From positions 1,035 to 65,034 of the IMG/VR virus record IMGVR_UViG_3300033153_006865: a stretch of DNA of 64,000 nt, one strand, 5' to 3'. The notes beneath the pieces were generated by a model, which worked only from the letters and a program-made list of their open reading frames with translations, had not been told where the DNA came from and searched no databases. The DNA comes from a virus (lineage: Duplodnaviria > Heunggongvirae > Uroviricota > Caudoviricetes). Positions 6,873 to 23,046 of this stretch are shown piece after piece (within the stretch, counting starts at the first letter, position 1; each line of letters begins with the position of its first letter). A program made the position numbers and the translations under genes.

Positions 6873-6931
6873 TAGTAAACACATATTGCATAATAAACTA
6901 GTATGGGCTATTATGCAATATGTGTTTACTA
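6873..6931. repeat. perfect 21-23 bp inverted repeat with 13-nt spacer
   Basis: gtaaacacatattgcataata ... tattatgcaatatgtgtttac, immediately 3' of the convergent HNH gene. Confidence 0.85.
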
Positions 6932-6933
6932 CT

Positions 6934-7431
6934 TCAATATGACATGAAGTAATCACCCATTTCAATCTCTACTTCGGTTCTTCTGTCCTGGGCCTGCTGT
7001 AAAGTATCAAACACTTCTCGTATTACATTTTTTATGCGTAGAGTATATCTACTCCCTCTTTTCTCAATGCAATAAGTACCATCTTTGAATCTATCAGTAT
7101 CCTTCAGCCTATTGAGTCTGTGGGATATAATTTGGGAATTCACTAATCTGTTGTCTTCCTTAATTTTATTTATATGATCGGTAACATACCGTCTACCATC
7201 TGGATGAGACCTATGTGGGAGAAACGTGTTTGTAACCATATTATGGATAAACATATATCCCTTATGGGTATCAACTGTTTTATACCCATCCTTATGTACT
7301 CTTCCAACTAAATATCTCCCAGTAGATATATTCTTAATCCTACCTAAAGTACTTACTAGGTATACATTATCTAGCTTTGGTACAAAATCCCATTCTTCCA
7401 TAATGTAAATATAAGGATTATTTTTAAGCAC
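6934..7431 (-). CDS. HNH homing endonuclease (NUMOD4/HNH_3-type, I-HmuI-like)
   Basis: WDFVP..YLVSTLGRIKN..TGR...GY..V-H..V...F....V.HIN.IK.DN...N; opposite strand to neighbours. Confidence 0.7.
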   Translation of the reverse strand: MLKNNPYIYIMEEWDFVPKLDNVYLVSTLGRIKNISTGRYLVGRVHKDGYKTVDTHKGYMFIHNMVTNTFLPHRSHPDGRRYVTDHINKIKEDNRLVNSQIISHRLNRLKDTDRFKDGTYCIEKRGSRYTLRIKNVIREVFDTLQQAQDRRTEVEIEMGDYFMSY

Positions 7432-8778
7432 TCTTATTTATTTTACAAATATCCCGTGTAAAAATAAGAAATTGGGCTGTTTCTATGCTGTTTGGACAGT
7501 TTATATGTTGGGGAGATATATGTCTGTAACCCTTACTACTATTGGGCTGTATAAATTATATGCAAATAATTAGCAAGTATGAAAGTGAGATTGGGTGAAT
7601 TTTTATATGTTTAGTACCACCTACACCCAAACTCCCCCACCCTATTAGAGTTTTGCCCCAACCCCCTATACATTTGAAAAACCAACTTTTCAAAATTTCA
7701 TCCTACAAAACGGAACCACCTATTTTAGTATTTATATTTTATACTCTCTTAATATCTATATACTACCCATAAAGTATCTGAATACTAACCTATCTACTAC
7801 ACACACATAACTATAAAACTACCTACTATTTATGTACATATATACTATAATAATATATTAAATTTAATTTAATTGCGTTTTTATATTGTTTATCCAACTA
7901 ATTGTTGTATATTAGCATAAGCGAATGAGGGGAACGTCCCTATTAACATTTACTAAGTTCTTTTTATATTTTTACCCAATAAGCAAATAGCATACTAGGA
8001 CACAATAGACCAGTCGTCCCCATTGTGAGGACGTGAAATTAATGGTTTGGAAATCGACAAAGCTTTACAGTGTTGAGGGTAAAAATATTAAAAGATTATT
8101 TTAATTCTATACCGTTTTAATTAGGTTTATTGAATTAAAAGAATTATATTTACATAAGCGTTACAAAGGTAACCATTTAGTAAAATTGACATAGGGATAA
8201 CAATATTTTTTTAATAATAACTTGCAAATTATTTGCAGTTCTTATTTATTTTCCTTATATTTGTTAAGAGTTACAAAGGTGGCTTTAATAACATTAGTTC
8301 ATTGACATACCGATTAATCACTTAAGTAGTGACGGGATTAACATTAATACTTTAAGCTTTATTAATATGGGTGCAACGCTCATTTAAGTTTGACGAACTT
8401 ACGAAATGTAAGTTATTATATTAATGCCTTTCTTTATACGGTGGTTCTATTCCTTGAAAGGTCAATTAAGAGTCGTAAGGCTTGAAAGTTGGGGGTTTGG
8501 TTAAGTGTGGCGTAATGTCCAAGGTTTGATAATAAAGAACTGATAGGTAGCCAGGGGTTGAATTCCCTTCATTAGACGTATAGAGAAGACTATACGCAAC
8601 AAAATTATATAATCTGTGCCCTTGTAGTGGTGCTAAAGGATTGAAAGCAAAACTACAAAGCTTTATTGAACGTCATGTTTAATAAAGCCCTAAGTCGTTA
8701 GACAGAATAATATTTGGCAAAGTGTCAAAATCCGTATAGGGTTGAACAAAGAAAATTTTACAAATTAATATAATTGTT
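7432..8778. other. 1.35 kb ORF-free structured region (candidate origin, early-promoter hub or large ncRNA)
   Basis: No ORF of 60 aa or more on either strand. C-rich tracts 7620..7670, extreme AT tract 7700..7900, many local hairpins 7920..8720, repeated GTTACAAAGGT...TTGACATA modules. Confidence 0.5.
8187..8225 (+). promoter_or_regulatory. sigma70-like promoter candidate
   Basis: TTGACA, 17-nt spacer, T/A-rich -10; preceded by GTTACAAAGGT at 8160. A second copy sits at 8271 (GTTACAAAGGT) and 8304 (TTGACA). Confidence 0.3.
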
Positions 8779-9186
8779 ATGAAAAATTCTAAAAATAGTG
8801 CATCGAACGAAAATAAATTAACTGGGCAACAAAAATTAGAGCTTAGAATAGCTAATTTAAAAGAAAGGTCTAAGAAAGAGGGGCTAAACCTTAATGAAAC
8901 TAAGATATTAGCCAATGCTGAGGAAAAAATTGACTGTAAGAGTGCAAGTCGTGTATATAAAGTAATGGACGCTTTGAATAAAACTAAAAAGGGATCTTTA
9001 TTGGGTGGTTCTAAGTTCCCTAGCTTCAAAACGTTCAAAGGATTGCTACCAGAGGGTAAAACATTGTTTAGTGCATGGGATGGGTTCGGAGTTTTGGTAA
9101 AATGTAACAAAAAGGCTGCTATGAAGTCGAAAGTAGACGCTCAAGGCGGTGTTATAGTGGGGAATAATGAATTATTATCTGCATAG
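8779..9186 (+). CDS. hypothetical protein (first gene after the ORF-free region)
   Basis: 135-aa Lys-rich ORF. Confidence 0.5.
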   Translation: MKNSKNSASNENKLTGQQKLELRIANLKERSKKEGLNLNETKILANAEEKIDCKSASRVYKVMDALNKTKKGSLLGGSKFPSFKTFKGLLPEGKTLFSAWDGFGVLVKCNKKAAMKSKVDAQGGVIVGNNELLSA

Positions 9187-10056: not shown

Positions 10057-10093
10057 ATGAACATATTATTAAGAATACTAAATAAGCACTATC

Positions 10094-10198
10094 ATGCGAG
10101 ACCTACTCAAACATATCTTTAGACCAGTGAATAATTTAGAAAGGGGATTGGTAGTAGTAGCCCTTATAATATTGGGAATTATAATTGCAAATATTTAA
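10094..10198 (+). CDS. small membrane peptide (34 aa, below ORF-track cutoff)
   Basis: ATG embedded in the AAGCACTATCATG start motif; hydrophobic GLVVVALIILGIIIANI. Confidence 0.35.
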   Translation: MRDLLKHIFRPVNNLERGLVVVALIILGIIIANI

Positions 10199-10273
10199 TT
10201 AGTTACTTATAGACTAGAGTAGGATATAGGAGTTAATCAGGGTAAGTCTTATTCGCCCCGAAAAATTAATACG

Positions 10274-10507
10274 ATGGGAATTAAAGTAGATATTAGTTAC
10301 AGCTGGTCTTGTGACGCAGGAGTTGAAATACCTGAAGCACATAAAGAGGCATTGAAAGAAGATGTAGAAAGTAGAATTTTTGAAATGTTAAAGGGAGGAA
10401 ACAACCAAGGGGAGTTAAACACAACAGTAAGGTTTGGTAAAGATATAGTGCCAGAAGAAGACGAAGAAGAAGGACTTCAATACAGCGGTTGGTGGTTTTA
10501 TTCATAG
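10274..10507 (+). CDS. acidic hypothetical protein
   Basis: 77-aa ORF with EEDEEEG. Confidence 0.4.
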   Translation: MGIKVDISYSWSCDAGVEIPEAHKEALKEDVESRIFEMLKGGNNQGELNTTVRFGKDIVPEEDEEEGLQYSGWWFYS

Positions 10508-10514
10508 AGAAATT

Positions 10515-10574
10515 CGCAGTCACGGTTGCAAATAGTAATAAGCTATTTGGGTGGTTCGAATCCACCGATTGCGA
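10515..10574 (+). ncRNA. tRNA-like element lacking a D-arm (acceptor stem + hairpin + canonical T-arm)
   Basis: Acceptor CGCAGTC pairs 7/7 (one G-U) with GATTGCG. T-arm GGTGG-TTCGAAT-CCACC. Internal 7-bp hairpin CAAATAG-TAATAAG-CTATTTG. Discriminator A. Only 60 nt. Confidence 0.4.
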
Positions 10575-10610
10575 CTAACAGGCGTTATGCCAACTAAAAC
10601 CAAAAAACAA

Positions 10611-10985
10611 ATGAGAAATTTATTATTAGTTATTGCAGTTATTTTTACCGTAGGAATCTGTCACTCACAAGGTGTGTATGAAGTAGATACAAGTTATGTA
10701 GCAACTGAAAACTATTCCTATAAACCCAGTATCAAATTAATTGATGCAACTCTTATTTCAGACAGATTGGATGAAAATAGAATTTGTTTACAGGAGTTGA
10801 AAGATACATTTAATAATCTTTCCTACTATGCTAAGTTATCCAGTGTCCAAAAAATAAAGCTGAATAAAAGAGTTGATTCTTATAAAAAGTGGGAGTCAAA
10901 GACAGATCTAAGTATAGAAAGTAATTATTCCTACGCATATAATTATCTTGATGACTCCATTGACTTAATGAAATCTTACAAGTAA
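10611..10985 (+). CDS. secreted hypothetical protein
   Basis: Signal peptide MRNLLLVIAVIFTVGICHSQ. The ORF track extends upstream to 10551 over the tRNA-like element, so the start is ambiguous (10587 or 10611). Confidence 0.5.
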   Translation: MRNLLLVIAVIFTVGICHSQGVYEVDTSYVATENYSYKPSIKLIDATLISDRLDENRICLQELKDTFNNLSYYAKLSSVQKIKLNKRVDSYKKWESKTDLSIESNYSYAYNYLDDSIDLMKSYK

Positions 10986-11034
10986 TATCATAACACTATC
11001 ATCAGTTCACTCAGTTGTTAGTGTCCAGGGCGTT

Positions 11035-11304
11035 ATGCCACCATTAAACTCATATACTATGTACTATCAATTACACGATGCGGAGAGCGAAGAAATACTT
11101 GGAACTGTTAAAGTCAGGAACGAGAAAGAATGCCAACTTAAAGGCATTTCTCACAGCAACGAAGTTTCAGAAAGTTGGGACGATTTTAATAGGTGCGAAG
11201 AGTCTGAAAATGACCACAGGGATGTTGGGGCGTTTGTTGAATGGAACAATGAAAATAGGGTCACACAGTTGGATCGTATTTACTTAGAGTATTGTCAACC
11301 TTAA
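11035..11304 (+). CDS. hypothetical protein
   Basis: 89-aa ORF. Confidence 0.4.
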   Translation: MPPLNSYTMYYQLHDAESEEILGTVKVRNEKECQLKGISHSNEVSESWDDFNRCEESENDHRDVGAFVEWNNENRVTQLDRIYLEYCQP

Positions 11305-11750
11305 ATATTTATAAATCAAAACCAACAGTTATGAACAGGAAAGGCAGAATCTTAAATAGTGCACTCCTTAAACAGGGGAAGTATGACCGTAAAGGTAAGA
11401 GCTATATGGACCTTTACCATAACAGAGTGTTAAATAAAAGGATAGAGGATTTGATTGTTAAATCTCATGTATTAGCTATTAGAACAAGAATAAGAAAGTT
11501 TATAGATGAGTGCTACAACAGCTTCAAAGACATAGACGAAATTGTAGGGGACCTCTATCCAATGACAGATAGTTGGTTTATAGACCTCGAATGTTTTGAT
11601 ATGGGGTTTGGAGAACTTACTGATAAGGACATCGACAAATATGACCTAGACTTCTGTTTGTACATACCTGAAATAAGAGAGTGTGTAAAAGAGATTGTCA
11701 TTATGGAGATACGAAAAATTGAATCGGGTACATTAAGTATGAATCTTTAA
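11292..11750 (+). CDS. hypothetical protein
   Basis: 152-aa ORF. Confidence 0.45.
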   Translation: MSTLNIYKSKPTVMNRKGRILNSALLKQGKYDRKGKSYMDLYHNRVLNKRIEDLIVKSHVLAIRTRIRKFIDECYNSFKDIDEIVGDLYPMTDSWFIDLECFDMGFGELTDKDIDKYDLDFCLYIPEIRECVKEIVIMEIRKIESGTLSMNL

Positions 11751-11762
11751 AACAGAGATGTT

Positions 11763-12323
11763 ATGAGAAATATAGCAACAATAGTAGAACATTATCTAGT
11801 GGCTGCCCTTTGGACAAATGAGATTGATAATATGTCAGTTAAGTGTAACATGGACAGGAAGGCAATAGAGGACGCCACATTACAAGTACAATGTTTCTTA
11901 GGTGCAGCATCGGCACTGCTTACAGAAGAGTGGACAGACGAACAGATAGGTCATGATTTATGGCTTACTCGTGGTGGACATGGTGCAGGATTTTGGGACA
12001 GGGGTTTACCTAATGGCGATAAGCTTACAGAGATTTGTAAACTGTTTGAGTTTCACGGACATGTATGGGTAGACAATGATAAAGAGATTGTTTACATAGA
12101 GGGAGATGAGCAATCAATTAATTTGTTTGAACACTACGAACTACTTCCACATAATGTGCAAGATGTTTTGATGGAGTTTGGAGAGGTCGAAGATACTTAT
12201 GAAGACTGTGCAAATCTTATAACAAGACTTGAAACAGTTGGATATACTTGTAGCTACTACCTTAACACAGAACCTTTTGATTTAAGATTAAATCAAGAGC
12301 CAGACTTTAAAGGACATTCATAA
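11763..12323 (+). CDS. hypothetical protein
   Basis: 186-aa ORF. Confidence 0.45.
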   Translation: MRNIATIVEHYLVAALWTNEIDNMSVKCNMDRKAIEDATLQVQCFLGAASALLTEEWTDEQIGHDLWLTRGGHGAGFWDRGLPNGDKLTEICKLFEFHGHVWVDNDKEIVYIEGDEQSINLFEHYELLPHNVQDVLMEFGEVEDTYEDCANLITRLETVGYTCSYYLNTEPFDLRLNQEPDFKGHS

Positions 12324-12356
12324 ACTAATAATCACTATCATTAAAAACTTACTACT

Positions 12357-12578
12357 ATGAATGGGTACAGAACAGACGAACAATTTGAAACTATATGTGA
12401 AAATATGGTAAATGGTAACTGGAGTGACGCAGCTCAAAATTGTGTTGACTTTGGCTTCTACGCTAATGATTTGAGCAACAAACAAGAAGAATACGAAGAT
12501 GCTGGAATGAACCCAATTACTGATAGAATGGACTTCGCCACCCTTTGTGAAATGGCTACGGAATTAAGACATAAGTAA
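12357..12578 (+). CDS. hypothetical protein
   Basis: 73-aa ORF. Confidence 0.4.
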   Translation: MNGYRTDEQFETICENMVNGNWSDAAQNCVDFGFYANDLSNKQEEYEDAGMNPITDRMDFATLCEMATELRHK

Positions 12579-12604
12579 AATTAATTATTACTAAAACTAT
12601 TACA

Positions 12605-13351
12605 ATGGAGTATTTAGAACAAGCAAAAAGTTTTTTAGAAACTACGAACACAACGTTTAAGGCAGAATATTTAGAACACGGTCTTCATTTCGAAGGTGAC
12701 AAAGAAAAAAGAGCTATTTACAAGATAACACTTTCAAATAAAGAAGGTGAGTTTTGTTTTGATTTTGGGCAAAGTATAGAGGACAGCTTTAAAAAAGAAA
12801 TGGGACCACAAAGGGATATATTGGAGACTATAAATGTTTATGCGGGGCTAGAGACAGCTTCTTCTTCATGTGGTCATTCCTTTAAGCTTAAAAAAGAGGA
12901 GGGGTTTAATCTTAGTGATGTCCGTTTTCAGGAATTAGCTTCTGATTTAGAAACAGAATACTACAGAAAAATAAGTAATAGGAATGAAAAATTACTTGAA
13001 AAGTTTAATAAAGGTGAAATTAGTCGTAATCTAATGAACGCAAAAAAAGACGGAGGAAATCTCGGATCTGGTGCTTTTACCCAATGCATTCAAAATGCAA
13101 TTAAAAGAGAATTAAACAAAGAAGTTGAAACAGCTGGTGAGTTCTTGCAAATTACACCGACTGAGTATGACGTACTCACTTGTTTAACTAAGTATGATCC
13201 AGAAACGTTTGAAGACTTTTGTAGTGAGTTTGGATATGATGAAGACAGTAGAAAGGCTGAAAAGATATACAAAGCAGTTGTAAACGAATACAATAATGTT
13301 GCGATGCTGTGGAATGACTCAGAAATTGAATTGTTAAGTGAGATACAATAA
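12605..13351 (+). CDS. hypothetical protein
   Basis: 248-aa ORF. Confidence 0.5.
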   Translation: MEYLEQAKSFLETTNTTFKAEYLEHGLHFEGDKEKRAIYKITLSNKEGEFCFDFGQSIEDSFKKEMGPQRDILETINVYAGLETASSSCGHSFKLKKEEGFNLSDVRFQELASDLETEYYRKISNRNEKLLEKFNKGEISRNLMNAKKDGGNLGSGAFTQCIQNAIKRELNKEVETAGEFLQITPTEYDVLTCLTKYDPETFEDFCSEFGYDEDSRKAEKIYKAVVNEYNNVAMLWNDSEIELLSEIQ

Positions 13352-13432
13352 CAGTCGTTTGAGCGACTCAAAACTTCATTAAGCTCAAAGCGTCCCACTT
13401 AGGTGGGGGTTGAACCATTAATAATCACTATC

Positions 13433-13648
13433 ATGAGCAAATACTTTGAAATATCAGGACATTGGAAAGATGACAAAACCGAGTTTGAAGGCTTAATAGT
13501 CAAAGAATTTGATGATGTCGACGAAGATACAGACGATTTAATTTTCTTCTACGGAATGGGTGAGAAGGATTTAAAAGAAGCCGTGGAGCATAAAGAAGAA
13601 ACGGCATTGGAGTTTGTTATAGAATCTTACAAAGAAACCAACCTTTAA
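13433..13648 (+). CDS. acidic hypothetical protein
   Basis: Start chosen at the ATG inside TAATCACTATCATG (13422..13435). Confidence 0.45.
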   Translation: MSKYFEISGHWKDDKTEFEGLIVKEFDDVDEDTDDLIFFYGMGEKDLKEAVEHKEETALEFVIESYKETNL

Positions 13649-13659
13649 AAATTTGAGTT

Positions 13660-14196
13660 ATGAAAACCATTAAAATAACAGTTTATAAGTTCGATGAACT
13701 TTCAAAAAGGATACAACAGTTAGCTATTGAAAAGCTGTATGGCATAAATGTAGACTATGCTTGGTGGGGGACTACCTATGAAGATGCTAAAACAATCGGT
13801 CTAGAGATAGAGAGTTTTGAGCTTGACAGAAATAGACATTGTTCTGGCGGTATTATGTACTCAGGGAATGAAACATCTAATTTAATATTGGAGAACCACG
13901 GAGAAAAATGTCAGACTACAGCCCTTGCAATAGGTTTTCGTTCTCGATGGGATAACTTAGTATCTGAATTTTCAGATGGTGTGAAAACTGATGAGGTAAC
14001 AGAAGAAAACGAACAAGAATTTGACGAAAAAGCCGATGAACTAGAAAAGGAGTTTGAGAACGATTTGTTAAGTGAGTACGCTAATATACTACAAAAAGAA
14101 TCTGAATATCTAATGAGTGAAGAGGCTATAATCGAATCAATCAAAGCGAATGATTATGACTTCACTGATGACGGAGAAATATACCTTATTAAATAA
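13660..14196 (+). CDS. acidic hypothetical protein
   Basis: 178-aa ORF. Confidence 0.45.
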   Translation: MKTIKITVYKFDELSKRIQQLAIEKLYGINVDYAWWGTTYEDAKTIGLEIESFELDRNRHCSGGIMYSGNETSNLILENHGEKCQTTALAIGFRSRWDNLVSEFSDGVKTDEVTEENEQEFDEKADELEKEFENDLLSEYANILQKESEYLMSEEAIIESIKANDYDFTDDGEIYLIK

Positions 14197-14204
14197 GCAC
14201 TATC

Positions 14205-14510
14205 ATGAAAAACACTGCTGAGAATAATAAATTGATTGCGAAGTTTATTAAATTAGGGTTCGCTCAAGATCCAAGAGGTAGTTCACCTCTATTTTATACT
14301 AGAAATAATTTAGATTACAAATCCAGTGAACTGAAATTTCATTCATCATGGGATTGGTTAATGCCAGTAGTAAGTGAAGTTGGTAAATCTTCTGACGAAA
14401 ACACCCTAGAAATAATAAAGGATATTGAGTATGGCTTGATTAACGTATCCATAGGCAATGTATATGAAGGGGTGATAGAATTTATCAAATGGTACAACGA
14501 AAACAAATAA
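14205..14510 (+). CDS. paralog-family protein (copy 1 of 4)
   Basis: Shares KLIAKFI, SSWDWLMPVV and GVIEFIKWYNENK blocks with the ORFs at 17051, 20364 and 22624. Start within AAGCACTATCATG. Confidence 0.55.
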   Translation: MKNTAENNKLIAKFIKLGFAQDPRGSSPLFYTRNNLDYKSSELKFHSSWDWLMPVVSEVGKSSDENTLEIIKDIEYGLINVSIGNVYEGVIEFIKWYNENK

Positions 14511-14511
14511 T

Positions 14512-14748
14512 ATGAAAACATTCCCCAACAAATTAGAGCTGAGGATCCACACCTTAAACCTCCTTGCATTCACAGAGATGGAACACATCTTAGATGAGGA
14601 AGAAATAGCGGAACGACTAACAACTGAAGCGTTTGAGGCTGCAAAGGAATTTGGATTCGACTTCGAAGATGAAGAGCATAGAGAGTACCTCTTAAAAGCA
14701 ACAACACCGGAGTCTCTTAAATATTTAATAGAGCAGTTAGAAAAATAA
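14512..14748 (+). CDS. acidic hypothetical protein
   Basis: 78-aa ORF. Confidence 0.4.
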   Translation: MKTFPNKLELRIHTLNLLAFTEMEHILDEEEIAERLTTEAFEAAKEFGFDFEDEEHREYLLKATTPESLKYLIEQLEK

Positions 14749-14779
14749 GGCAATATTGCCGTCATCAATAATCACTATC

Positions 14780-15016
14780 ATGACAGAATTTATAGTAGAA
14801 CTAGTTAAGCTGAAAGAGGAAAAATTGAAAATCCTACTGGCGTTTGCAATTGTGGCTATAGTATTAAGTGGGACAGCAGTAGGATTTTCAATTCTCACAG
14901 AACCTCATCAATATAATTACTACATTGATATTGACCAAGAACACGGTGTAATTATCAATAACGATACTATTCAGCTAGAGCAGTTGGAAGAATACATCAT
15001 TGAAGATAATATTTGA
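14780..15016 (+). CDS. membrane hypothetical protein
   Basis: Start within AATCACTATCATG; one TM helix. Confidence 0.45.
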   Translation: MTEFIVELVKLKEEKLKILLAFAIVAIVLSGTAVGFSILTEPHQYNYYIDIDQEHGVIINNDTIQLEQLEEYIIEDNI

Positions 15017-15019
15017 ATT

Positions 15020-15295
15020 ATGGAAATAAGATATATAAAACTATTAACATACAACCAAGCTTGTGATGTAATAAAATTTGTAAATAATAACGATATCCAT
15101 GACTATGCTAATCCAACAACCGGTGGAGTGTCAGTCCAATCTATAGATTTTAAACCAATTGAAAAATTTATTAAGGACAAAGGATGGCAACATGAATGGA
15201 GCGAAGTACCTCCACATAAGGTAAATGAAAAAATAGTCGAGAGTCTAAAAGACGATATTCTAACAAAAGAAAAAAAGGTTTATAACGGCTATTGA
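15020..15295 (+). CDS. hypothetical protein
   Basis: 91-aa ORF. Confidence 0.45.
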   Translation: MEIRYIKLLTYNQACDVIKFVNNNDIHDYANPTTGGVSVQSIDFKPIEKFIKDKGWQHEWSEVPPHKVNEKIVESLKDDILTKEKKVYNGY

Positions 15296-15341
15296 CGGAT
15301 CGTATGGCATAGACCCCATATCCAATTGTGATTCATACAGA

Positions 15342-15497
15342 ATGGGTGTTACCAAGTTAGAGTATGATGAGGACAACAATACGTTGAATGTCTATCTTAG
15401 AAGACCTGGGCTATTAATTGGTAAAGCAGGCTCAAATATAAATAAATTAAAAGAATATTTAGGGGCCGAAATTCATATACATGAGGTCATCTTTTAA
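15342..15497 (+). CDS. KH-domain mini-protein (51 aa, below ORF-track cutoff)
   Basis: RPGLLIGKAGSNINKLKEYLGAEI contains the KH GxxG loop (IGKAG). Confidence 0.35.
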   Translation: MGVTKLEYDEDNNTLNVYLRRPGLLIGKAGSNINKLKEYLGAEIHIHEVIF

Positions 15498-15510
15498 TAG
15501 CAATAAAACG

Positions 15511-15534
15511 AATCACTATCATTTCGTTTCATTA
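15511..15534 (+). promoter_or_regulatory. hairpin presenting the TCACTATCAT motif in its loop
   Basis: aaacgaa-TCACTATCAT-ttcgttt. Confidence 0.4.
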
Positions 15535-15697
15535 CGGGTTTGTGACTAAAGGCTGTTAAGCCACAAAAAGGAGGGAGCATGAAGAAATAATTATTTAAAC
15601 TTGCAAACTAAAAAGTAGGCACAAAAATGTTCTACGACCAAACAAAAAGGAAGAGCAGGAAACGTAAGCCTCTCCATTTTACTTAAAACTCAATATT

Positions 15698-15940
15698 ATG
15701 AATACACCAATCTATAATTTAGAATTGAAAATGAAAGACAGCATTCCAGAGGAAAGCAGACAACTTTTCAAAGCCATAACTTGGAACAGCCTATTGGAGA
15801 ATTTAAAACCAAAGGATTTTTCATTATCAACTGTGGCGTGTGTTAATACCTATAATAGACTTGCTACTATAGTTGAAAATGAAGGTACTATTACTATACA
15901 ATGCCCCACATCCGGTTCAGAATTAATAATAACTTACTAA
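15698..15940 (+). CDS. hypothetical protein
   Basis: 80-aa ORF. Confidence 0.4.
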   Translation: MNTPIYNLELKMKDSIPEESRQLFKAITWNSLLENLKPKDFSLSTVACVNTYNRLATIVENEGTITIQCPTSGSELIITY

Positions 15941-15957
15941 TTAACCATATAAAAGTT

Positions 15958-16125
15958 ATGAAAAGAATACTCATTATAATCTATTTATTGATAATGGGTA
16001 TCCTATCTTATTTCATGCTGATATTAGTCAGCTCTGTGGCAGCCTTCTTACTAGTACTAACCTGTGTAGTAAGAAGGAAACAGTCATGGTACGAAGATAA
16101 GGAGGTGCCTCCATTATTATACTGA
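15958..16125 (+). CDS. small membrane protein
   Basis: MKRILIIIYLLIMGILSYFMLILVSSVAAFLLVL. Confidence 0.4.
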   Translation: MKRILIIIYLLIMGILSYFMLILVSSVAAFLLVLTCVVRRKQSWYEDKEVPPLLY

Positions 16126-16211
16126 ATGCCTGAGACACTCGAATAGAAAGAGAAAACCAGCAGGTAGCCTTTGCAAGTAACTGGTCACTTTTATTAACTA
16201 AATCTAACATT

Positions 16212-16409
16212 ATGCGGATATATTATATAATCCTTATTGCAATGTTTTTAGAGATTCTAGTTATCGAAGTAATATTATTAGAAACATATGTGAGTCTAGA
16301 TCCGAAGCCATACAGAAGCTTTGGTAATTGGCTCCTTTCTATTTACAACGATAAAGAACCTCATCCATTGACAAAGAGTGCGCCTGAAGTACATTCTCCC
16401 AAAGAGTGA
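16212..16409 (+). CDS. small membrane protein
   Basis: hydrophobic N-terminus. Confidence 0.35.
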   Translation: MRIYYIILIAMFLEILVIEVILLETYVSLDPKPYRSFGNWLLSIYNDKEPHPLTKSAPEVHSPKE

Positions 16410-16596
16410 GAATAGAAAACCAGCAGGTATGTAGTCACAAATAACTGGTCGCTATGAAGAACCCCAACACGGGGATAAAAAGGAATCGCCCACCTAACAG
16501 TAGGAATCAGAGGCGATTATATAGAAAGTACGGAAATCCCCTAATAAACTGGGGGATTTCTGCCAAGCCTGTTAAGGCACCATTAAAATTAAGACC

Positions 16597-16794
16597 ATGA
16601 AAAATAGATACACATTCGATGTAATACACCGAGACAGTTTTCCAAGACAATTCCAAGTCAGATTTGCAAACCAAAATGATGACGAAGGGGATGTTTTTGA
16701 CTCGCTCAAAGGTTGTCTAAAAGTTTTGGACAAAAGCATGAGCTTTGATGTGTTTATATCACTAGAAGTAATGAGAGATTTTGTAAAACTTTAA
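16597..16794 (+). CDS. hypothetical protein
   Basis: 65-aa ORF; its stop codon TAA abuts the start motif of the next gene. Confidence 0.4.
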   Translation: MKNRYTFDVIHRDSFPRQFQVRFANQNDDEGDVFDSLKGCLKVLDKSMSFDVFISLEVMRDFVKL

Positions 16795-16806
16795 ATCACT
16801 ATCATG
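16793..16806 (+). promoter_or_regulatory. start-codon-embedded conserved motif AAATCACTATCATG
   Basis: One of at least 9 copies: 10084, 13422, 14195, 14770, 16793, 17595, 18574, 19296, 20713. Confidence 0.6.
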
Positions 16807-17040
16807 AAAACAATCAAGGTACAGAGCGATGAACACAATATACATATAGATTGTCCAGAATGTGATATGTGGGAGCAATTGGGGGGGGGGGTGGACGACC
16901 CCCGAAAGAGGTTAAATGTATTACCTATAATCAAATGGCTGCCTGGTGAAGACGATTCACATGAAGAGTCAATTCATAAATGTGTTGGCTGTGAAACAGA
17001 ATTTAAGGTTGAATGGGATTATAGTAATCCAATAAATTAA
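16804..17040 (+). CDS. zinc-ribbon protein containing an in-frame G10 tract
   Basis: CPECD...CVGCE; GGGGGGGGGG at 16878..16887 encodes GGG. Confidence 0.45.
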   Translation: MKTIKVQSDEHNIHIDCPECDMWEQLGGGVDDPRKRLNVLPIIKWLPGEDDSHEESIHKCVGCETEFKVEWDYSNPIN

Positions 17041-17050
17041 AAACATAGGT

Positions 17051-17377
17051 ATGGAAACTGCTGAAGAGAGTAACAAGATTATTGACTTATTCATGGCTGA
17101 ATTTGAAGAGCATGAATCAGACAGACTTAATATTATTAATGACCTACTAGTTAAAGGCCACACACCAAATAGGTATGATGAGTCTTGGAGTTGCCTAATG
17201 CCAGTAATAGCAGCAATGAACTTTGAATGTAGGATATTGGACGGTGCAGCCGACCAATATGAATCAGTTGTCCAAACGATAGAAGATGCTATTTGGACTG
17301 ATGACATAAGCCAAGCGTTCGAAGCGGTAGTTGAATTTATAAAATGGCACAATGAAAACAATAACGATAAGAGCTAG
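17051..17377 (+). CDS. paralog-family protein (copy 2 of 4)
   Basis: ESWSCLMPVI and AVVEFIKWHNEN. Confidence 0.55.
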   Translation: METAEESNKIIDLFMAEFEEHESDRLNIINDLLVKGHTPNRYDESWSCLMPVIAAMNFECRILDGAADQYESVVQTIEDAIWTDDISQAFEAVVEFIKWHNENNNDKS

Positions 17378-17609
17378 GTACCAACCCTCTAGTAAAGCCC
17401 ACATATTCCTCTCTTCTTCACCAAGGACTTACAAAGGAGACTTTCTCAATAGTATGATAAGCCTACCAAAATCACAGGTGGAAATCATAGAAGTTAAGGA
17501 AATAGCTATGAGTTTGAAAGAGGTAACTGTGAGTATGCCGGAATGGTTATATGACACACTTCCGTTTGGAGAATCTGAGTGGGGTAAAAAACTAAAATCA
17601 CTATCATGA
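17352..17609 (+). CDS. hypothetical protein
   Basis: 85-aa ORF. Confidence 0.35.
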   Translation: MKTITIRARYQPSSKAHIFLSSSPRTYKGDFLNSMISLPKSQVEIIEVKEIAMSLKEVTVSMPEWLYDTLPFGESEWGKKLKSLS

Positions 17610-17827
17610 AGAATTATATTTTAATGCACACTCATAAACATGGGATAACTTATTACTTATTCAGAAGTAATAGAGCATTTTCAGGGTACTATGATGAAGA
17701 GAACGAGGAACCTGATTTCGAGCTACAACAAGTGCTTTCTGGGTTAGGCATATATTACGAGCCCGATAGAAATGAGAGTCTAGAAATAGAACAAGGTGTG
17801 GAAGGGTTAAAAGAATTTAAATTTTAA
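17606..17827 (+). CDS. hypothetical protein
   Basis: Start within AAATCACTATCATG. Confidence 0.45.
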   Translation: MKNYILMHTHKHGITYYLFRSNRAFSGYYDEENEEPDFELQQVLSGLGIYYEPDRNESLEIEQGVEGLKEFKF

Positions 17828-17895
17828 TTATTACAGAACTGAAATAACCTTGCAAAAACTTGCAGGAGATTTAAATTTACATTACATTTGTTATT

Positions 17896-18576
17896 ATGAA
17901 ATTCCTCACTAAAGCAAAATCAAAGAATAGTTTGAGTACATGGATATTGTATCTCAATCCTGCCGAGCAAAATAGTAAAGGTATAAATCTATGTCCATTT
18001 GCATCGAAAGGTTGTCTGGTATCTTGTATTCATACAGCAGGAAGTGGCGGATTAGATATTGTAAAGGAAGCAAGAGCAAGAAGGACTGAACTTTTAGTGA
18101 AGAATCGCAGACAGTTTTACATGCAATTGGCAAAAGAGATACTTAGTAAAGTTGCTTATTACCAACGTAAGAATCAAATGATTGCTTTTAGGCTAAATGG
18201 TACGAGTGATATCGACCATGCTAAGGCTTTAAAAGTGTATGCTGGATTGGAGATTGAAGACCTTCACGGTAAAGCTGTGTTCTTTGATTTTACAAAAAGT
18301 ATTCACATGGCTGTAAAATACAAAGACTCCCCTAACTATATCCTTACGTTTTCAAGAGCTGAGGATAATCAAGAGCATGTATTAACAGCGATGGAGTATA
18401 ATATAAATGTATCTGTTGTGTTCTCAAATAAACCCCCAAAAGAATTTTTAGGAAAGTCTGTTATAGATGGGGGCCAAAACGGGATTATGATGATTTATAA
18501 CAGGAATGTAATAATAGGAATATTGGCTAAGGGTGCTGCCAGAAAAGATACTACAGGATTCACTATACAAAACTAA
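17896..18576 (+). CDS. Cys-motif hypothetical protein
   Basis: 226 aa with CPFASKGCLVSC. Confidence 0.45.
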   Translation: MKFLTKAKSKNSLSTWILYLNPAEQNSKGINLCPFASKGCLVSCIHTAGSGGLDIVKEARARRTELLVKNRRQFYMQLAKEILSKVAYYQRKNQMIAFRLNGTSDIDHAKALKVYAGLEIEDLHGKAVFFDFTKSIHMAVKYKDSPNYILTFSRAEDNQEHVLTAMEYNINVSVVFSNKPPKEFLGKSVIDGGQNGIMMIYNRNVIIGILAKGAARKDTTGFTIQN

Positions 18577-18583
18577 CACTATC

Positions 18584-18970
18584 ATGAAAAAAGAAAAGCA
18601 ATATCTAAAAGACCACTGTATTAAAATCTATGCTGGTAACAATCATATCCATATGGATGATGTAGCAGAGGCCATGAAAGGGTTTTCAGAGCAACAACTT
18701 GAAGAGAAAGAGGGACACTACCAAGGAGCCTACAACGGCCTTAAGTTCAAATTTGATGAGGCAGAAGAAAAGCTTAAGAAAGCAAACAAAACTTCTAACT
18801 ACTGGATGAAGTCAAGTCTTTCAGCAGAAGATGCTGTAAAAGAACGAGACAACCAAATCAAGCTTTTGAATGATGCCTTGAAAGAACTCAACGATTTAGT
18901 GATACAGCAAGAGCCTACTCATAGTTGGAAAAGGTATGATGATTTAATCACTAGTAGCCCTATTTCATAG
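18584..18970 (+). CDS. hypothetical protein
   Basis: Start within TAACACTATCATG; coiled-coil-like. Confidence 0.45.
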   Translation: MKKEKQYLKDHCIKIYAGNNHIHMDDVAEAMKGFSEQQLEEKEGHYQGAYNGLKFKFDEAEEKLKKANKTSNYWMKSSLSAEDAVKERDNQIKLLNDALKELNDLVIQQEPTHSWKRYDDLITSSPIS

Positions 18971-19108
18971 AATTGTAATAAAGAAAACTTAAATTAAAAT
19001 ACAGGGGGTACAGTATAGGAAGACGTGAGTGTAAACTTTGATCGGAATTGCCTAGTTCAATATGCAAGAAATTGAGCTGCACCCTTATTTAAAACTAACA
19101 ATTGAATT

Positions 19109-19294
19109 ATGAATGAGTGTGATGTAAAAAGACTAGCTCAAGTTTTAGCTGTGCAAGCCGAGATTGAAGGTATGAAAGCCTTCAACAAACAAAGGGAAAT
19201 TCAAGATGAGAGCCCAGGATACAACCAAAAGGATTTTAATGATATGGCAGATCAATTAAACAACTTAGGCCACTCACACAATGACCAGTTATAA
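19109..19294 (+). CDS. hypothetical protein
   Basis: 61-aa ORF. Confidence 0.35.
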   Translation: MNECDVKRLAQVLAVQAEIEGMKAFNKQREIQDESPGYNQKDFNDMADQLNNLGHSHNDQL

Positions 19295-19305
19295 TAATCA
19301 CTATC

Positions 19306-20343
19306 ATGGGTAAAAAAGATAAAGTAATTCAGACATTGGAGCAAGCGAAGGCACTACTTGGGGATATTCAATCCTACGACAAGTTCATTGTATGTTTCTC
19401 CGGAGGAAAAGATTCCATTGCTCTTTTCTTATACTTATTAGAGTTAGGAATAGAAAAAAGCAAGATTGAGCTTTGGCACCACGATATTGATGGTGAGCTT
19501 AAAGTTGGAGAAAGTAATTTTATGGACTGGCCTATCACTAAGCCTTACTGCAAAGCATTTGCAAAAGCTTTCAATGTACCCATTTATTTCTCCTGGAGGG
19601 AAGGAGGGTTCAAACGTGAGATGTTGCGAGAGAATCAGCCCACAGGTGATACTCTTTTTGAGGATGAAAATCACAATATTATTCGCATAGAGAGCCGAAA
19701 AGGAGATCGGTATAATAACACAAGACTTAAGTTTCCACAAGTAACTGCAGATCTTTCTACACGCTGGTGTAGTGCGTACCTTAAGATTGACATCTGTGCA
19801 AGCGCCATTCGTAATCAAGATAGGTTCAAAGGGATAAAAACTCTGGTACTAACTGGTGAACGAGGAGAGGAAAGTAAGGCAAGAGGGACATACAACATTG
19901 TAGAACCAGATAGAAGTGATCTCAGGGATGGAAGAACTCCTAGATATGTCGATCATTACCGGCCTATAAGAGATTGGACAGAACGAGAAATTTGGGAAAT
20001 AATTGAACGATGGTCGGTCCGACCCCATCCTGCATATGTCCTTGGATTTGGGAGGGTAAGTTGTATGAAATGTATTTTTGGCAATGCCAACCAATTTGCA
20101 AGCGCAGCAAAGATTGACCCAGCTGGAACAAAAGATGTTTCAAATTACGAAAAAACCTTCGGTGTTACAATTAAAAGAAAAGAGTCTGTTGATGAATTAA
20201 TTGCAAAAGGTACTCCATATGAAATGGATAAACAAATGAGGCAATTAGCAATGGAGAAGGAGTATCCCCTGAACATAATAATGAGGCATGACGCATGGGA
20301 GTTACCATCAGGGGCTTATGGAGAAAGTTGTGGACCAACTTAA
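19306..20343 (+). CDS. PP-loop ATPase of the PAPS-reductase family
   Basis: FIVCFSGGKDSIAL (SGGxDS PP-loop); 345 aa; start within AATCACTATCATG. Confidence 0.7.
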   Translation: MGKKDKVIQTLEQAKALLGDIQSYDKFIVCFSGGKDSIALFLYLLELGIEKSKIELWHHDIDGELKVGESNFMDWPITKPYCKAFAKAFNVPIYFSWREGGFKREMLRENQPTGDTLFEDENHNIIRIESRKGDRYNNTRLKFPQVTADLSTRWCSAYLKIDICASAIRNQDRFKGIKTLVLTGERGEESKARGTYNIVEPDRSDLRDGRTPRYVDHYRPIRDWTEREIWEIIERWSVRPHPAYVLGFGRVSCMKCIFGNANQFASAAKIDPAGTKDVSNYEKTFGVTIKRKESVDELIAKGTPYEMDKQMRQLAMEKEYPLNIIMRHDAWELPSGAYGESCGPT

Positions 20344-20363
20344 TAATTATAAATTGAAAGTAG

Positions 20364-20714
20364 ATGAAAAGAACTGAAGAACATAAAATGATCGCTGAGT
20401 TCATGGGAAAAGAGGTTGAACTTATTGACGGAGTATATAAAGAGGTTGGAAAGGATATCCATCCCCAACCTTTATACTACCATGATTCATGGAGTTGGTT
20501 AATGGAAGTAGTTGAGAGGATTGACAAAACACCGACAGTAACCAGCACAGAAGAGGAAAAATATTATTACTGCGTATCTTTAATGGGATCCCAAGTTGAA
20601 GTATTAGACCCCAAAGCAAACACTCTTATCATCAATATAAAGATAGATGAGACGGACTGGAAGAAATCAACATATGAAGCGGTAGTTGCATTTATTACTT
20701 GGTATAACCTTTAA
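20364..20714 (+). CDS. paralog-family protein (copy 3 of 4)
   Basis: MIAEFMGK, DSWSWLMEVV and AVVAFITWYN. Confidence 0.55.
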   Translation: MKRTEEHKMIAEFMGKEVELIDGVYKEVGKDIHPQPLYYHDSWSWLMEVVERIDKTPTVTSTEEEKYYYCVSLMGSQVEVLDPKANTLIINIKIDETDWKKSTYEAVVAFITWYNL

Positions 20715-20723
20715 ATCATTATC

Positions 20724-20924
20724 ATGAAGATTAACATACCAATAATGCAAGTCGGGCCTCCTCCAGGACATGGACCACCACCTTGGGCACCTCCTGGGGG
20801 TAACTGCTGGCCACCTCCGTGTGTTGACATCGTGTCAAACTCAGTTATAATACTTCTAGTATTAACAGCAATATTCATAGCTTGGAAAAAGATAAGAAAC
20901 AATAAAATAGATGGCATTAATTAG
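20724..20924 (+). CDS. Pro/Gly-rich single-TM peptide
   Basis: GPPPGHGPPPWAPPGGNCWPPPC followed by a TM helix; start within AAATCATTATCATG. Confidence 0.4.
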   Translation: MKINIPIMQVGPPPGHGPPPWAPPGGNCWPPPCVDIVSNSVIILLVLTAIFIAWKKIRNNKIDGIN

Positions 20925-21243: not shown

Positions 21244-21504
21244 ATGGGTAAGAAGGACGACAGACTAACACAGGATGCTATAAATTCTTTAGTAGAAGAA
21301 TTTTCAGAGCGGGATTTGGCTGACCTTGTTGAACCATATCGTGAGATAGGTAAGAAGGAAATTAGAACATCACCTAATAAACCTGTTGAATCACGGATAG
21401 CTGATCACTGGTTGGAGTTTTGTGATCTAAGACACACAGCCTCGAAATTTGAAATTAGAACCGGAGAGGTATTATTAATTTTGGAAAAACAAGGAATACT
21501 ATGA
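21244..21504 (+). CDS. hypothetical protein
   Basis: Internal ATG chosen. The ORF track start at 21169 encodes a hydrophobic leader, so the start is ambiguous. Confidence 0.35.
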   Translation: MGKKDDRLTQDAINSLVEEFSERDLADLVEPYREIGKKEIRTSPNKPVESRIADHWLEFCDLRHTASKFEIRTGEVLLILEKQGIL

Positions 21505-21944
21505 AAAATCTATTTAAAGCACTATCATTGGTCGTTGTTTTATCTACAAATATGGTGGGTCAAGATACTATTATTGTAGACACCTTTTCTGTGGAAGCTC
21601 TCAAAATTTACTTGGAGGAGGTCAATGTAAGATATCCAGATATTATATTTGCGCAGGCTGTCCTAGAATCAAAGAACTTTACATCGGATGTTTTTAAAGA
21701 TAACCATAATTTAATGGGGATGAAATGTGCAGCATCTAGACCCTATACCCACCTGGGAGTAAGTAACAGAGGGCATGCAGTCTATGCGTCATGGCGTATG
21801 AGTGTGTTGGATTATGTAATCTATCAATCTTGTTATACAAGGGGCTTGAAAACTGAAGAAGAGTATCTTAAGTTTTTAGGACATAGTTATGCTACGGATC
21901 CTAGGTATGTAGAAAAGCTAAAAAGTATAATGGGACAAAAATAA
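21501..21944 (+). CDS. secreted peptidoglycan N-acetylglucosaminidase (FlgJ-like)
   Basis: Signal peptide plus AQAVLESKNFTS...NLMGMK glucosaminidase signature. Confidence 0.6.
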   Translation: MKNLFKALSLVVVLSTNMVGQDTIIVDTFSVEALKIYLEEVNVRYPDIIFAQAVLESKNFTSDVFKDNHNLMGMKCAASRPYTHLGVSNRGHAVYASWRMSVLDYVIYQSCYTRGLKTEEEYLKFLGHSYATDPRYVEKLKSIMGQK

Positions 21945-21949
21945 ACACT

Positions 21950-22627
21950 ATGTCAAACTACAAACCTCTGCCAAAAGAAATAAATGGACTAAAGATTATT
22001 AAAGATTTAGGCAGAATATACCCTACCGAGAAGTCAAAGAGAAAGGAGAGGTTCGCAATTCTATTGTGTAGGTGTGGAGAAGAGTTTAGGGCCAGAACAG
22101 ATAGTATTAAAAATGGGAGTACAACATCTTGTGGATGTGTACAAAGGTCATTAACCGCTGAGAGGTCTATTACACATAACTTATCCAAACACCCACTATA
22201 CAAGACGTGGGGGAATATGAAGAGGCGTTGCTACAATAAAAATAGAGAAGATTATGATAACTACGGAGGCCGGGGTATTAAGGTCTGTGACAGGTGGTTA
22301 GACTCTTTTCCAAACTTCCTGTCTGATATGGGGGTAAAACCTTCTAAATCCCACTCTCTTGACAGAAAAGAAAATGACGGGGATTACACCCCTGAAAATT
22401 GTAGATGGGCCACAAAAGAAGAGCAGACACTTAACCAACGTATAATGAAAACAAACAAGACAGATTTTGTTGGTATATCCTTTAGTGGAGGTAAACTTAG
22501 ATCGGTTATTTACTACAAAGAGAGGCAAACCCACCTGGGAACATTTGACACTCCTGAAGAAGCTGCAAGAGTAAGAGATAAATATATTATTGACAATAAT
22601 TTACCCCATAAACTATCAAAACTATGA
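21950..22627 (+). CDS. AP2-domain homing endonuclease
   Basis: LYKTWGNMKRRCYN...YGGRGIKVCDRW..FPNFLSDMG nuclease module plus C-terminal AP2 (GISFSGGKLRSVIYYK..HLGTFDTPEEAARVRD). Confidence 0.7.
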   Translation: MSNYKPLPKEINGLKIIKDLGRIYPTEKSKRKERFAILLCRCGEEFRARTDSIKNGSTTSCGCVQRSLTAERSITHNLSKHPLYKTWGNMKRRCYNKNREDYDNYGGRGIKVCDRWLDSFPNFLSDMGVKPSKSHSLDRKENDGDYTPENCRWATKEEQTLNQRIMKTNKTDFVGISFSGGKLRSVIYYKERQTHLGTFDTPEEAARVRDKYIIDNNLPHKLSKL

Positions 22628-23046
22628 ATATTAAAGAAGCAAACAAACTAATATCTGAATATATGTATCCAGATTGGGTACATCCAGAGGACACATCAGA
22701 ACATATTACACCTCTCCTAGAAGCTGTTGGAGGAAGCTATGCTGTTCTTGCCAGACTATTAGATGAGGATTATGAAAGTTTAAACTTTCATAACTCATGG
22801 AGCTCTTTGATGAAAGTAGTAATTAAGATCACCAACTTCAAATTTGTAGGTGATCTTAATGGAGACCACGCCTACTTTAGAACATTTGGAATGAAGACAA
22901 AAGGGACTGATCTATATATGGTAAGAATAAATAGATTTAAGGTGCACACAGCTGAAGAGTTTATCGATGCAGCCTATGCAGCAGTAGTAGAATTTATTAA
23001 TTGGTACAACGAAAACAAAAATGATGACGGACAAGTTAGTAGCTGA
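22624..23046 (+). CDS. paralog-family protein (copy 4 of 4)
   Basis: KLISEYM, NSWSSLMKVV and AAVVEFINWYNENKND. Confidence 0.55.
   Translation: MNIKEANKLISEYMYPDWVHPEDTSEHITPLLEAVGGSYAVLARLLDEDYESLNFHNSWSSLMKVVIKITNFKFVGDLNGDHAYFRTFGMKTKGTDLYMVRINRFKVHTAEEFIDAAYAAVVEFINWYNENKNDDGQVSS

Follow-up and report, generated by a model that had tools for sequence, protein, structure and literature searches.

A start-codon-associated 13-nt motif in one gene block of a metagenomic phage: a tentative promoter for leaderless mRNAs and its alternatives

The closest described analogue of the element reported here is the start-associated sequence (SAS) of the Cluster K mycobacteriophages, a 13-nt asymmetric repeat found in about 10-20 copies, in one orientation, in the non-structural region of the genome, whose function is not established (PMC3203893). 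We analysed a 64,000-nt stretch (positions 1,035 to 65,034; hereafter the window) of the IMG/VR virus record IMGVR_UViG_3300033153_006865, a member of the Caudoviricetes, in which a 13-nt motif with the consensus AAK-CACTATC-AT(G) recurs in a block of small genes between 10 and 21.5 kb. Like the SAS, the motif lies at the starts of unrelated genes, nearly always with ATG as the start codon, and the stop codon of the upstream gene is sometimes inside the repeat; 13 plus-strand copies are present in a block of ORFans, nine of them at the starts of non-paralogous genes. The two elements differ in position and content: the SAS lies 3-7 bp upstream of the start and contains the Shine-Dalgarno (SD) core AGGAG, with which it can pair to the 16S rRNA 3' end, whereas the motif extends two or three bases into the start codon, contains neither GGAG nor AGGA and has no SD sequence. 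Moreover, the host type is not one that uses SD sequences, and four copies of the motif are off gene starts.

The exact sequence CACTATCATG occurs eight times on the plus strand of the window, at 10087, 13426, 14198, 14773, 16797, 17599, 18577 and 19299, where 0.06 occurrences are expected. Five plus-strand copies with one mismatch lie in the same block (10994, 12333, 15514, 20717 and 21520), the copy at 20717 being CATTATCATG. Matches with at most one mismatch numbered 17, against 4.1 +/- 2.0 in dinucleotide shuffles, and none of the 100 shuffles reached 17; among the 8-mers of the window, CACTATCA shows the strongest over-representation (13 observed, 1.1 expected). A position weight matrix (PWM) covering -10..+2, numbered from the A of ATG, gave 13 matches of at least 16 bits, all on the plus strand between 10087 and 21520, and only two weaker sites, both on the minus strand, elsewhere in the window. 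The PWM found no copy in the 19 kb of new sequence in the two flanking loci (L001 and L002); the searches for confinement and for polymerases thus covered the window plus these flanks, i.e., about 83 of about 130 kb. The confinement to a 10-21 kb block described in an earlier note on this DNA holds over that span, with the block extended to 21.5 kb. The nine start codons listed there (10094, 13433, 14205, 14780, 16804, 17606, 18584, 19306 and 20724) are indeed the last three bases of CACTATCATG or, for the copy at 20717, of CATTATCATG. Copies without ATG had been placed at about 10993 and 12326; both exist, but at 10994 (with ATC) and 12333 (with ATT), and the list lacked the copy at 21520 (with ATT). 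The copy reported near 15516 does lie in a hairpin loop, but the hairpin is weak (7-bp AT-rich stem, -4.8 kcal/mol, z = -1.75).

The logo of the 13 copies carries information at -10..+3 only, in the order A, A, T/G, C, A, C, T, A, T, C, A, T, followed by G in nine of 13 copies. Each position from -30 to -11 holds at most 0.66 bit, and nothing is conserved farther upstream. The 9-mer common to all copies is CACTATCAT, preceded by AA(T/G). The four copies without ATG retain CACTATCAT perfectly, as well as AA at -10/-9, and differ at +3 alone, which indicates that the constraint acts on the 9-mer rather than on the start codon; the putative +1..+3 is accordingly ATG, ATT or ATC in all 13. To judge from the copies themselves, the selected unit is the 12-mer and not the start codon, with no strict tie to translation starts.

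The motif is fused to ATG in nine of the 13 copies, and the open reading frames (ORFs) so opened encode 34-345 aa. The independent JGI gene caller chooses the motif ATG at 10094, 13433 and 14205. The motif occurs once per ~0.9 kb, or once per ~2.5 genes, and is present on only about one in four genes of the block. The block itself (10-21.5 kb) consists of small ORFans without a family match, except for a GP88-like gene, a PAPS-reductase-like gene and a few PHROG families of unknown function. The nine motif-fused genes are not paralogs of one another, and the paralogs that do exist in the block now share no more than 25-32% identity, so that the sameness of the motif copies is due to selection and not to recent duplication. 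We regard the motif as real: it is a signal for gene expression, specific to one strand and to one gene block. The suggestion that the block genes form one temporal class is plausible; these are small ORFan genes in a region poor in host-type promoter boxes.

The gap between the upstream stop codon and the fused start codon is 7-11 nt at five of the nine fused copies, -4 nt at one, and 31, 37 and 81 nt at the other three. The earlier note has TAA, as the stop of the preceding gene, often standing immediately upstream; this holds for five copies, but not for the three in which the stop lies 31-81 nt earlier or for the one with an ATGA overlap. A signal for termination and reinitiation would have an upstream stop within a few nt at every copy, and four copies have no start codon at all. 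Pure stop-start coupling is thus weakened by the four conserved copies off start codons and by the four of nine fused copies in which TAA is not the upstream stop. The features of the block are listed in Table 1.

Table 1. Motif copies and associated features of the small-gene block (window coordinates).
Feature	Position	Strand	Context
Motif copy AAGCACTATCATG	10084..10096	+	ATG 10094 opens 34-aa ORF 10094-10198 (JGI call L002 19532-19636); upstream gene ends 37 nt before
Motif copy TAACACTATCATC, no ATG (ATC)	10991..11003	+	Intergenic; core at 10994, 31 or 55 nt ahead of next start (11035 or 11059)
Motif copy AATCACTATCATT, no ATG (ATT)	12330..12342	+	Intergenic; core at 12333; 14 nt ahead of ATG 12357
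Predicted Pistol self-cleaving ribozyme	13353..13414	+	Rfam RF02679, 61.5 bits against gathering score 34.5; full model 1-68
Motif copy AATCACTATCATG	13423..13435	+	ATG 13433 opens 71-aa gene 13433-13648 (JGI call L131 2436-2651)
Motif copy AAGCACTATCATG	14195..14207	+	ATG 14205 opens 101-aa gene of four-copy paralog family (JGI call L131 3208-3513); upstream TAA 14194-14196
Motif copy AATCACTATCATG	14770..14782	+	ATG 14780 opens 78-aa gene
Motif copy AATCACTATCATT, no ATG	15511..15523	+	Loop of weak hairpin; 201-nt non-coding gap; 175 nt ahead of gene 15698
Motif copy AATCACTATCATG	16794..16806	+	ATG 16804 opens 78-aa gene; upstream TAA 16792-16794
Motif copy AATCACTATCATG	17596..17608	+	ATG 17606 opens 73-aa gene; upstream gene reads through motif and stops at overlapping TGA (ATGA)
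Host-type -7 box TACATTTG	17883..17898	+	5-nt spacer, then ATG of GP88-like gene (Pfam GP88); leaderless-type arrangement within the block
Motif copy TAACACTATCATG	18574..18586	+	ATG 18584 opens 128-aa gene; upstream TAA 18574-18576
Motif copy AATCACTATCATG	19296..19308	+	ATG 19306 opens 345-aa PAPS-reductase-like gene
Motif copy AATCATTATCATG, one mismatch	20714..20726	+	ATG 20724 opens 66-aa gene
Motif copy AAGCACTATCATT, no ATG (ATT)	21517..21529	+	Within first codons (A-L-S-L, signal peptide) of glucosaminidase gene 21501-21944; 22 nt ahead of internal ATG 21552

The gene starts of the phage lack SD sequences and are A-rich upstream, with A at -3 in 63%, at -5/-6 in ~51% and at -13..-9 in 52-68%. 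An SD-like tetramer precedes only 6% of the ORF-opening ATGs of the window, spurious ORFs included, and among 108 gene starts other than those with the motif G does not exceed 19% at any position from -20 to -1. An A-rich, SD-less initiation pattern is described for Flavobacterium johnsoniae (PMC6847099), and as the upstream A pattern of the phage is the same, its host very probably belongs to the Bacteroidota. Those adenines that the motif has at -3, -6, -9, -10 and often -12/-13 coincide with the preferences of both the phage and F. johnsoniae. The motif cytosines at -7, -5 and -1, in contrast, stand where C is seldom found in the 108 other gene starts (8-13%). As read from these profiles, the motif is a workable initiation region overlaid with extra specific information.

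In Flavobacterium the -7 box TAHHTTTG of sigma-A promoters occupies -12..-5, and transcription starts 4-5 nt later (PMC6847099, PMC9723704). The distance between such boxes and start codons was surveyed in 158 related phage loci, most of them SD-less, after de-duplication and with four mutated boxes as controls. Host-type boxes favour a distance of 4 nt before an ORF-opening ATG (20 cases, against a mean of 5.1 and a maximum of 17 per distance at 11-60 nt), and none of the four control boxes gave a peak at 4 nt. Across all sequences examined, including loci L135-L208, 21 non-redundant box-N4-ATG arrangements were found, with the spacer consensus T-A-W-Y. A box followed by a 5-nt spacer and ATG is also present at 32546-32561 of the window, and Cellulophaga phage phi4:1 has box-spacer-ATG arrangements at 7472 (L125; 4 nt) and ~102083 (5 nt). 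From these arrangements, leaderless expression from host-type promoters seems to be a common architecture in phages of Bacteroidota-type hosts. Intergenic host-type boxes on the plus strand of the window lie at 7669, 8256 and 9499 and at seven places between 25 and 33 kb, and a single one (17883) lies in the motif block.

The motif has a comparable geometry. An invariant CAC stands at -7..-5, where the host box has TTG; the 4-nt spacer TATC separates it from the ATG. Like the leaderless sigma-A promoters of the Bacteroidota, it thus has an element that ends 4 nt before ATG, a spacer of the T-A-W-Y type and an A at the putative start. However, positions -12..-5 read (A/T)(T/A)AAKCAC, so that T-7, T-6 and G-5 of the -7 box are replaced by the invariant CAC, although the spacing of 4-5 nt from box to start is retained if the box is taken to end at C-5. 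A sigma-A consensus promoter is excluded, as CAC replaces TTG, the TA at -12/-11 has no fixed register, and neither the spacer nor +1/+2 shows any variation. The interpretation that we tentatively prefer is that the motif is a promoter outside the host sigma-A consensus, which would give leaderless or short-leader mRNAs starting on the A of ATG. A promoter is suggested because the information is confined to -10..+3 with nothing conserved farther upstream, because three of the copies without ATG sit in intergenic spacers ahead of the next gene, and because a density of one copy per ~0.9 kb and ~2.5 genes is that of an operon signal rather than a per-gene signal. The maintenance of the motif by selection, the scarcity of host-type boxes in the block (one intergenic) and the parallel between CAC/TATC/ATG and the host-type box-N4-ATG arrangements argue in the same direction. 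A C at -1 followed by an A at +1 is a typical start dinucleotide, and the geometry is consistent with putative leaderless transcripts.

According to this interpretation, AAK-CACTATC-AT would be a class-specific promoter or initiator element read on DNA by an RNA polymerase whose specificity is unlike that of the host primary sigma factor. Transcription would start at the A after CACTATC, which is the first base of ATG in nine of 13 copies and would there give a leaderless mRNA; the remaining copies would give leaders of ~17-58 nt, or of ~177 nt for the copy at 15514. Each copy would open a unit of ~1-5 small genes, presumably early or middle ones, and in transcripts that read through from upstream the same sequence would double as an adequate A-rich translation initiation region.

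Several results weigh against a promoter. Positions -4..+2 are invariant, which is unusual for sigma-dependent promoters. Leaderless mRNAs make up 5.5% in flavobacteria (PMC9723704), and 87% of flavobacterial leaders are longer than 10 nt (PMC6847099). The stop codon inside the motif in five of nine fused copies and the ATGA overlap in one are typical of internal cistrons, and the match of the motif adenines to the initiation determinants of Bacteroidia (PMC6847099) and to the phage's own profile is what would be expected of a sequence present in mRNA. At the 13426 junction, a read-through RNA carrying the motif as its leader is to be expected from the ribozyme predicted just upstream. Moreover, the ~83 kb covered revealed no gene for a single-subunit RNA polymerase (RNAP), a sigma-like factor or any other polymerase. 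The remaining ~47 kb of the genome is presumably the structural module, by analogy with phi4:1. Beyond the right end of the window (L001 3603-9296) lies a gene for a 1,897-aa virion-type protein homologous to phi4:1 gp35, next to genes for proteins of 843 aa and 1,620 aa without a family match. The C-terminal part of the 1,897-aa protein (residues ~1180-1735) is homologous to the 'putative RNA-polymerase subunit' of the crAss001 type, and the absence of the catalytic DxDxD motif from this protein likewise counts against a promoter. Neither it nor phi4:1 gp38 and gp42 had a sequence match in the PDB. The phi4:1 protein gp38, a giant protein with the sole DFDxD, was considered as a polymerase and rejected, as BLASTP against the crAss-type RNAP gave no support.

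Of the three roles that the earlier note had proposed, the leaderless promoter is thus kept, pure stop-start coupling has lost ground, and the RNA-processing site survives in a broader form that is possible and nearly as likely as a promoter: a start-associated sequence that acts in the mRNA, at or near the translation initiation region, and is bound or cut by a specific phage or host factor co-regulating a subset of early genes. Two T4 proteins offer possible models for this factor, which might repress or activate translation in the manner of RegA or cut RNA as an endoribonuclease in the manner of RegB. The motif resembles the T4 RegA operators and RegB sites in being a short signal mostly located in the initiation regions of an early-gene subset, with a few copies elsewhere in intergenic RNA; it differs from them in having 9-13 invariant nt, whereas RegA sites are degenerate and RegB cuts the 4-nt GGAG. 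No RegA or RegB homologue turned up, although no search was aimed at either, and the absence of a candidate RNA-binding regulator or nuclease is a weakness of this explanation. The fusion of nine of 13 copies to ATG speaks for it, as do the tight packing of stops and starts, with one ATGA overlap, and the adenines at -3/-6/-9/-10/-12/-13, which fit both the determinants of Bacteroidia (PMC6847099) and the 108 other phage genes, while the invariant pyrimidines C-7, C-5 and C-1 on top of this A pattern suggest specific recognition over a working initiation region. The likeness to the SAS in length, asymmetry, single orientation, position in the non-structural half and association with ATG (PMC3203893) points the same way. 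The opposite is indicated by the four perfectly conserved copies off start codons, one of them 175 nt from any gene and one inside an ORF, and by the presence of the motif on only about a quarter of the block genes. Multi-target sequence-specific RNA regulators are, in addition, far rarer in phages than class-specific promoters. The Pistol ribozyme, the sole Rfam match in the window, bears on both explanations. It occupies the spacer between gene 12605-13351 and the motif gene 13433, and its cleavage is predicted from the model alignment at the conserved GU (G13409^U13410), 16 nt upstream of the motif core at 13426. The earlier argument that the motif leaves no room for a 5' untranslated region is therefore true only if transcription starts at the motif, since the ribozyme would leave gene 13433 with a 23-nt leader containing the motif on read-through RNA, in favour of an RNA-level role. 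Motif-directed cleavage at this copy would, on the other hand, be redundant with a ribozyme that is predicted to cleave 16 nt upstream. The arrangement is compatible both with the ribozyme as a 3'-end former plus a promoter and with the ribozyme as an insulator plus an initiation region. Neither the flanks nor phi4:1 nor any of eight related loci yielded such a ribozyme.

Two further explanations fare less well. T7-class promoters have ~23 bp conserved from -17 to +6, including the -12..-8 specificity region, and initiate with G (+1 to +3 G-rich). The CACTATC of the motif at -7..-1 matches six of the seven positions of the CACTATA of T7, SP6 and K11 promoters, in the same register to the putative start, and promoters of single-subunit RNAPs typically show such compact conservation close to the start; the yeast mitochondrial nonanucleotide promoter is likewise short, highly conserved and directly adjacent to the start. 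Nevertheless, a T7-class promoter read by a phage single-subunit RNAP, the resemblance raised in the earlier note, appears very improbable: the conserved span is 13 nt (-10..+3) and not ~23, the -17..-8 region is not conserved, the start base would be A instead of G and the mRNAs would be leaderless. No PF00940-type polymerase appeared in Pfam matches or scans over the 83 kb, none is annotated in the relative phi4:1, and the unrelated L167 group of phages, described below, has the same 9-mer and no such gene in the parts of it examined. It is also improbable, if less so, that the motif is a passive stop-start spacer of 'house style' without a dedicated factor, kept identical by recombination or gene conversion and serving as a crossover point for small-gene cassettes like the PeSL of T4-type phages. 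PeSL cassettes are likewise repeated regulatory modules between small ORFans of a plastic early region and possibly points of recombination, but they are ~50-70 nt long, comprise a sigma-70 promoter and a hairpin and lie upstream of a normal leader, in contrast to the 13-nt, ATG-fused motif with no obligatory hairpin. Such a spacer would fit the other SD-less contigs that have start-fused motifs of their own on runs of small genes (nine copies of AAACTATATAATATG in L145, and five, six and nine copies of such motifs in L143, L144 and L164, respectively), and a gene that is 95% identical between L265 and L222 with wholly different upstream sequences and a breakpoint at the ATG. Also, of the four contig ends in a sibling assembly, three fall inside copies 10994 and 14773 of the motif, and the last, at 11057, is located 55 nt downstream of the 9-mer in copy 10994. 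A search for a deletion junction between these two copies found none, in a collection that seems not to include this contig. However, in four of the nine fused copies the upstream gene does not end at the TAA, all four copies away from starts have stayed intact, and gene conversion alone leaves the strict strand bias, the confinement to the block and the same 9-mer in an unrelated phage group unexplained.

This group comprises L167/L216, a 14.8-kb contig, and the DnaB-like-helicase relatives L215, L221, L227 and L265, which carry the 9-mer at or next to gene starts. CACTATCATG is found at L216 2762 and 4541, with the 9-mer 0 nt before the start codon, and CACTATCATTATG at L216 5367, L265 3068 and 5446 and L227 1739, with the 9-mer exactly 3 nt before it, so that the A periodicity is preserved, which favours a role in RNA; spacings of 10 and 22 nt occur at L265 6588 and L227 552. 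The orthologues in sister phages bear other modules at the same place (CTAGAAATT-ATG, AAACTATATAAT-ATG and AAACTAAAAGAC-ATG), which also fits action at the RNA level. Many other matches to CACTATCAT in loci of the group are coding coincidences (Pro-Thr-Ile-Ile or Thr-Thr-Ile-Met, with free synonymous variation in orthologues) and were excluded. The group is abundant and uncultured, its longest contig is ~60 kb, and the only thing it has in common with the phage of the window is a paralog family. This family has four copies of ~100-140 aa in the window (SWxWLMPVV ... EFIKWYN; 14205-14510, 17051-17377, 20364-20714 and 22624-23046), no Pfam or PHROG match and no member in phi4:1. Its alignment (A1) covers 454 IMG/VR stretches, and most of the carrier loci are SD-less; the predicted structure (pLDDT 48) was too poor to use.

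The motifs of the other SD-less contigs are 13-17 nt long and are fused to the ATG of nearly every small gene in a run (L145 2106-5961, L143 8223-10314, L144 5681-7057 and L164 8009-10725). Examples are TTAAAACTATATAATATG and AATAGAAAYTATG, with nine copies each, and one gene family bears a different motif in each phage. In L200, by comparison, 17 cassettes with a classical -35/-10 plus hairpin are present. A wider interpretation, which we regard as unlikely, is that CACTATCAT would be the core of an undescribed class of compact initiator-type promoters (-10 to +2) for leaderless early or middle mRNAs, used by unrelated marine phages of Bacteroidota-type hosts and read by a small phage sigma-like protein or a virion-borne polymerase, the motifs of L143, L144, L145 and L164 being of the same kind with co-evolved specificity.

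The nearest cultured relatives of the phage are the Cellulophaga phages phi4:1 and phi17:2, the 1,897-aa virion protein being matched at 24% identity and a T5 A1-like protein, encoded at L002 4094-5674, at 33%. Neither the motif nor any start-fused motif was found in phi4:1. INPHARED, IMG/VR and a set of 5.8 billion proteins contained no close relative, the block gave no megablast match to phage genomes, and scans of IMG/VR with the PAPS-reductase-like, GP88-like and ligase proteins revealed no relative of the phage. The GP88-like protein had no homologue above 59% identity besides itself among the 5.8 billion proteins, and the contexts of P0006 and P0008 proved to be unrelated phages without the motif. 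A scan of IMG/VR with a 15-mer form of the motif gave single chance matches only, scans for the sigma-70 consensus and for intrinsic terminators revealed nothing associated with the motif, and a literature search on the motif string and on promoter motifs or transcriptomes of Cellulophaga phages found nothing relevant. The full window is matched without mismatches in JGI metagenome assemblies, in one of which the phage is a 130,346-bp contig. In sample 3300033148 it is split into a 126,544-bp contig, which runs from window 14778 around to 11057, and a second contig of 3,785 bp identical to window 10998-14782, the ends 10998, 14778 and 14782 being those inside motif copies; the split points to a structural variant, a step in coverage or physical ends at motif copies.

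Other features of the region were recorded as well. Upstream of the block, ~2 kb (6770-8780) is nearly gene-free and contains a perfect 23-bp inverted repeat (6873-6895 / 6909-6931), several other inverted repeats, the host-type -7 boxes at 7669 and 8256 and a local reversal of GC skew, which recalls the non-coding, repeat-rich stretches close to the termini of T5-like genomes. The 201-nt gap that holds the copy at 15514 also contains, at 15566-15590, a strong SD-like sequence before a three-codon mini-ORF (AAAAGGAGGGAGCATGAAGAAATAA), which is odd in an SD-less genome. The repeat AAACCAGCAGGTA...ACTGGTC, a possible hairpin, is present in two consecutive intergenic spacers (16154-16166 and 16417-16429). 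At 10549-10566, GGGTGGTTCGAATCCACC resembles a tRNA T-arm with part of the acceptor stem and overlaps a possible GTG start (10551) of the next ORF; ARAGORN and Rfam called no tRNA there, and to judge by its sequence it may be a tRNA remnant. Genes for homing endonucleases of the HNH/NUMOD4 type occur in the early/replication region on the plus strand (21950-22627, 27508-27918 and 37198-38286) and on the minus strand (~6934-7401).

The expression signals of phages that infect Bacteroidota are almost unknown, and their hosts do without SD recognition and have a primary sigma factor of an unusual type. A signal of 13 nt into which the start codon is built offers a directly testable handle on the switching between temporal classes and on the reliance on leaderless mRNAs in such phages; it recurs in an unrelated group of uncultured phages, adjoins a predicted Pistol ribozyme and lies amid host-type promoters of the leaderless type. 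If the motif is a promoter, it would represent a new specificity and imply a dedicated factor, and if it acts at the RNA level, it would be a counterpart, independent of SD, to the SAS of mycobacteriophages, which are themselves unexplained. Under either reading, the motif would be a reliable marker of true start codons for the annotation of these genomes.

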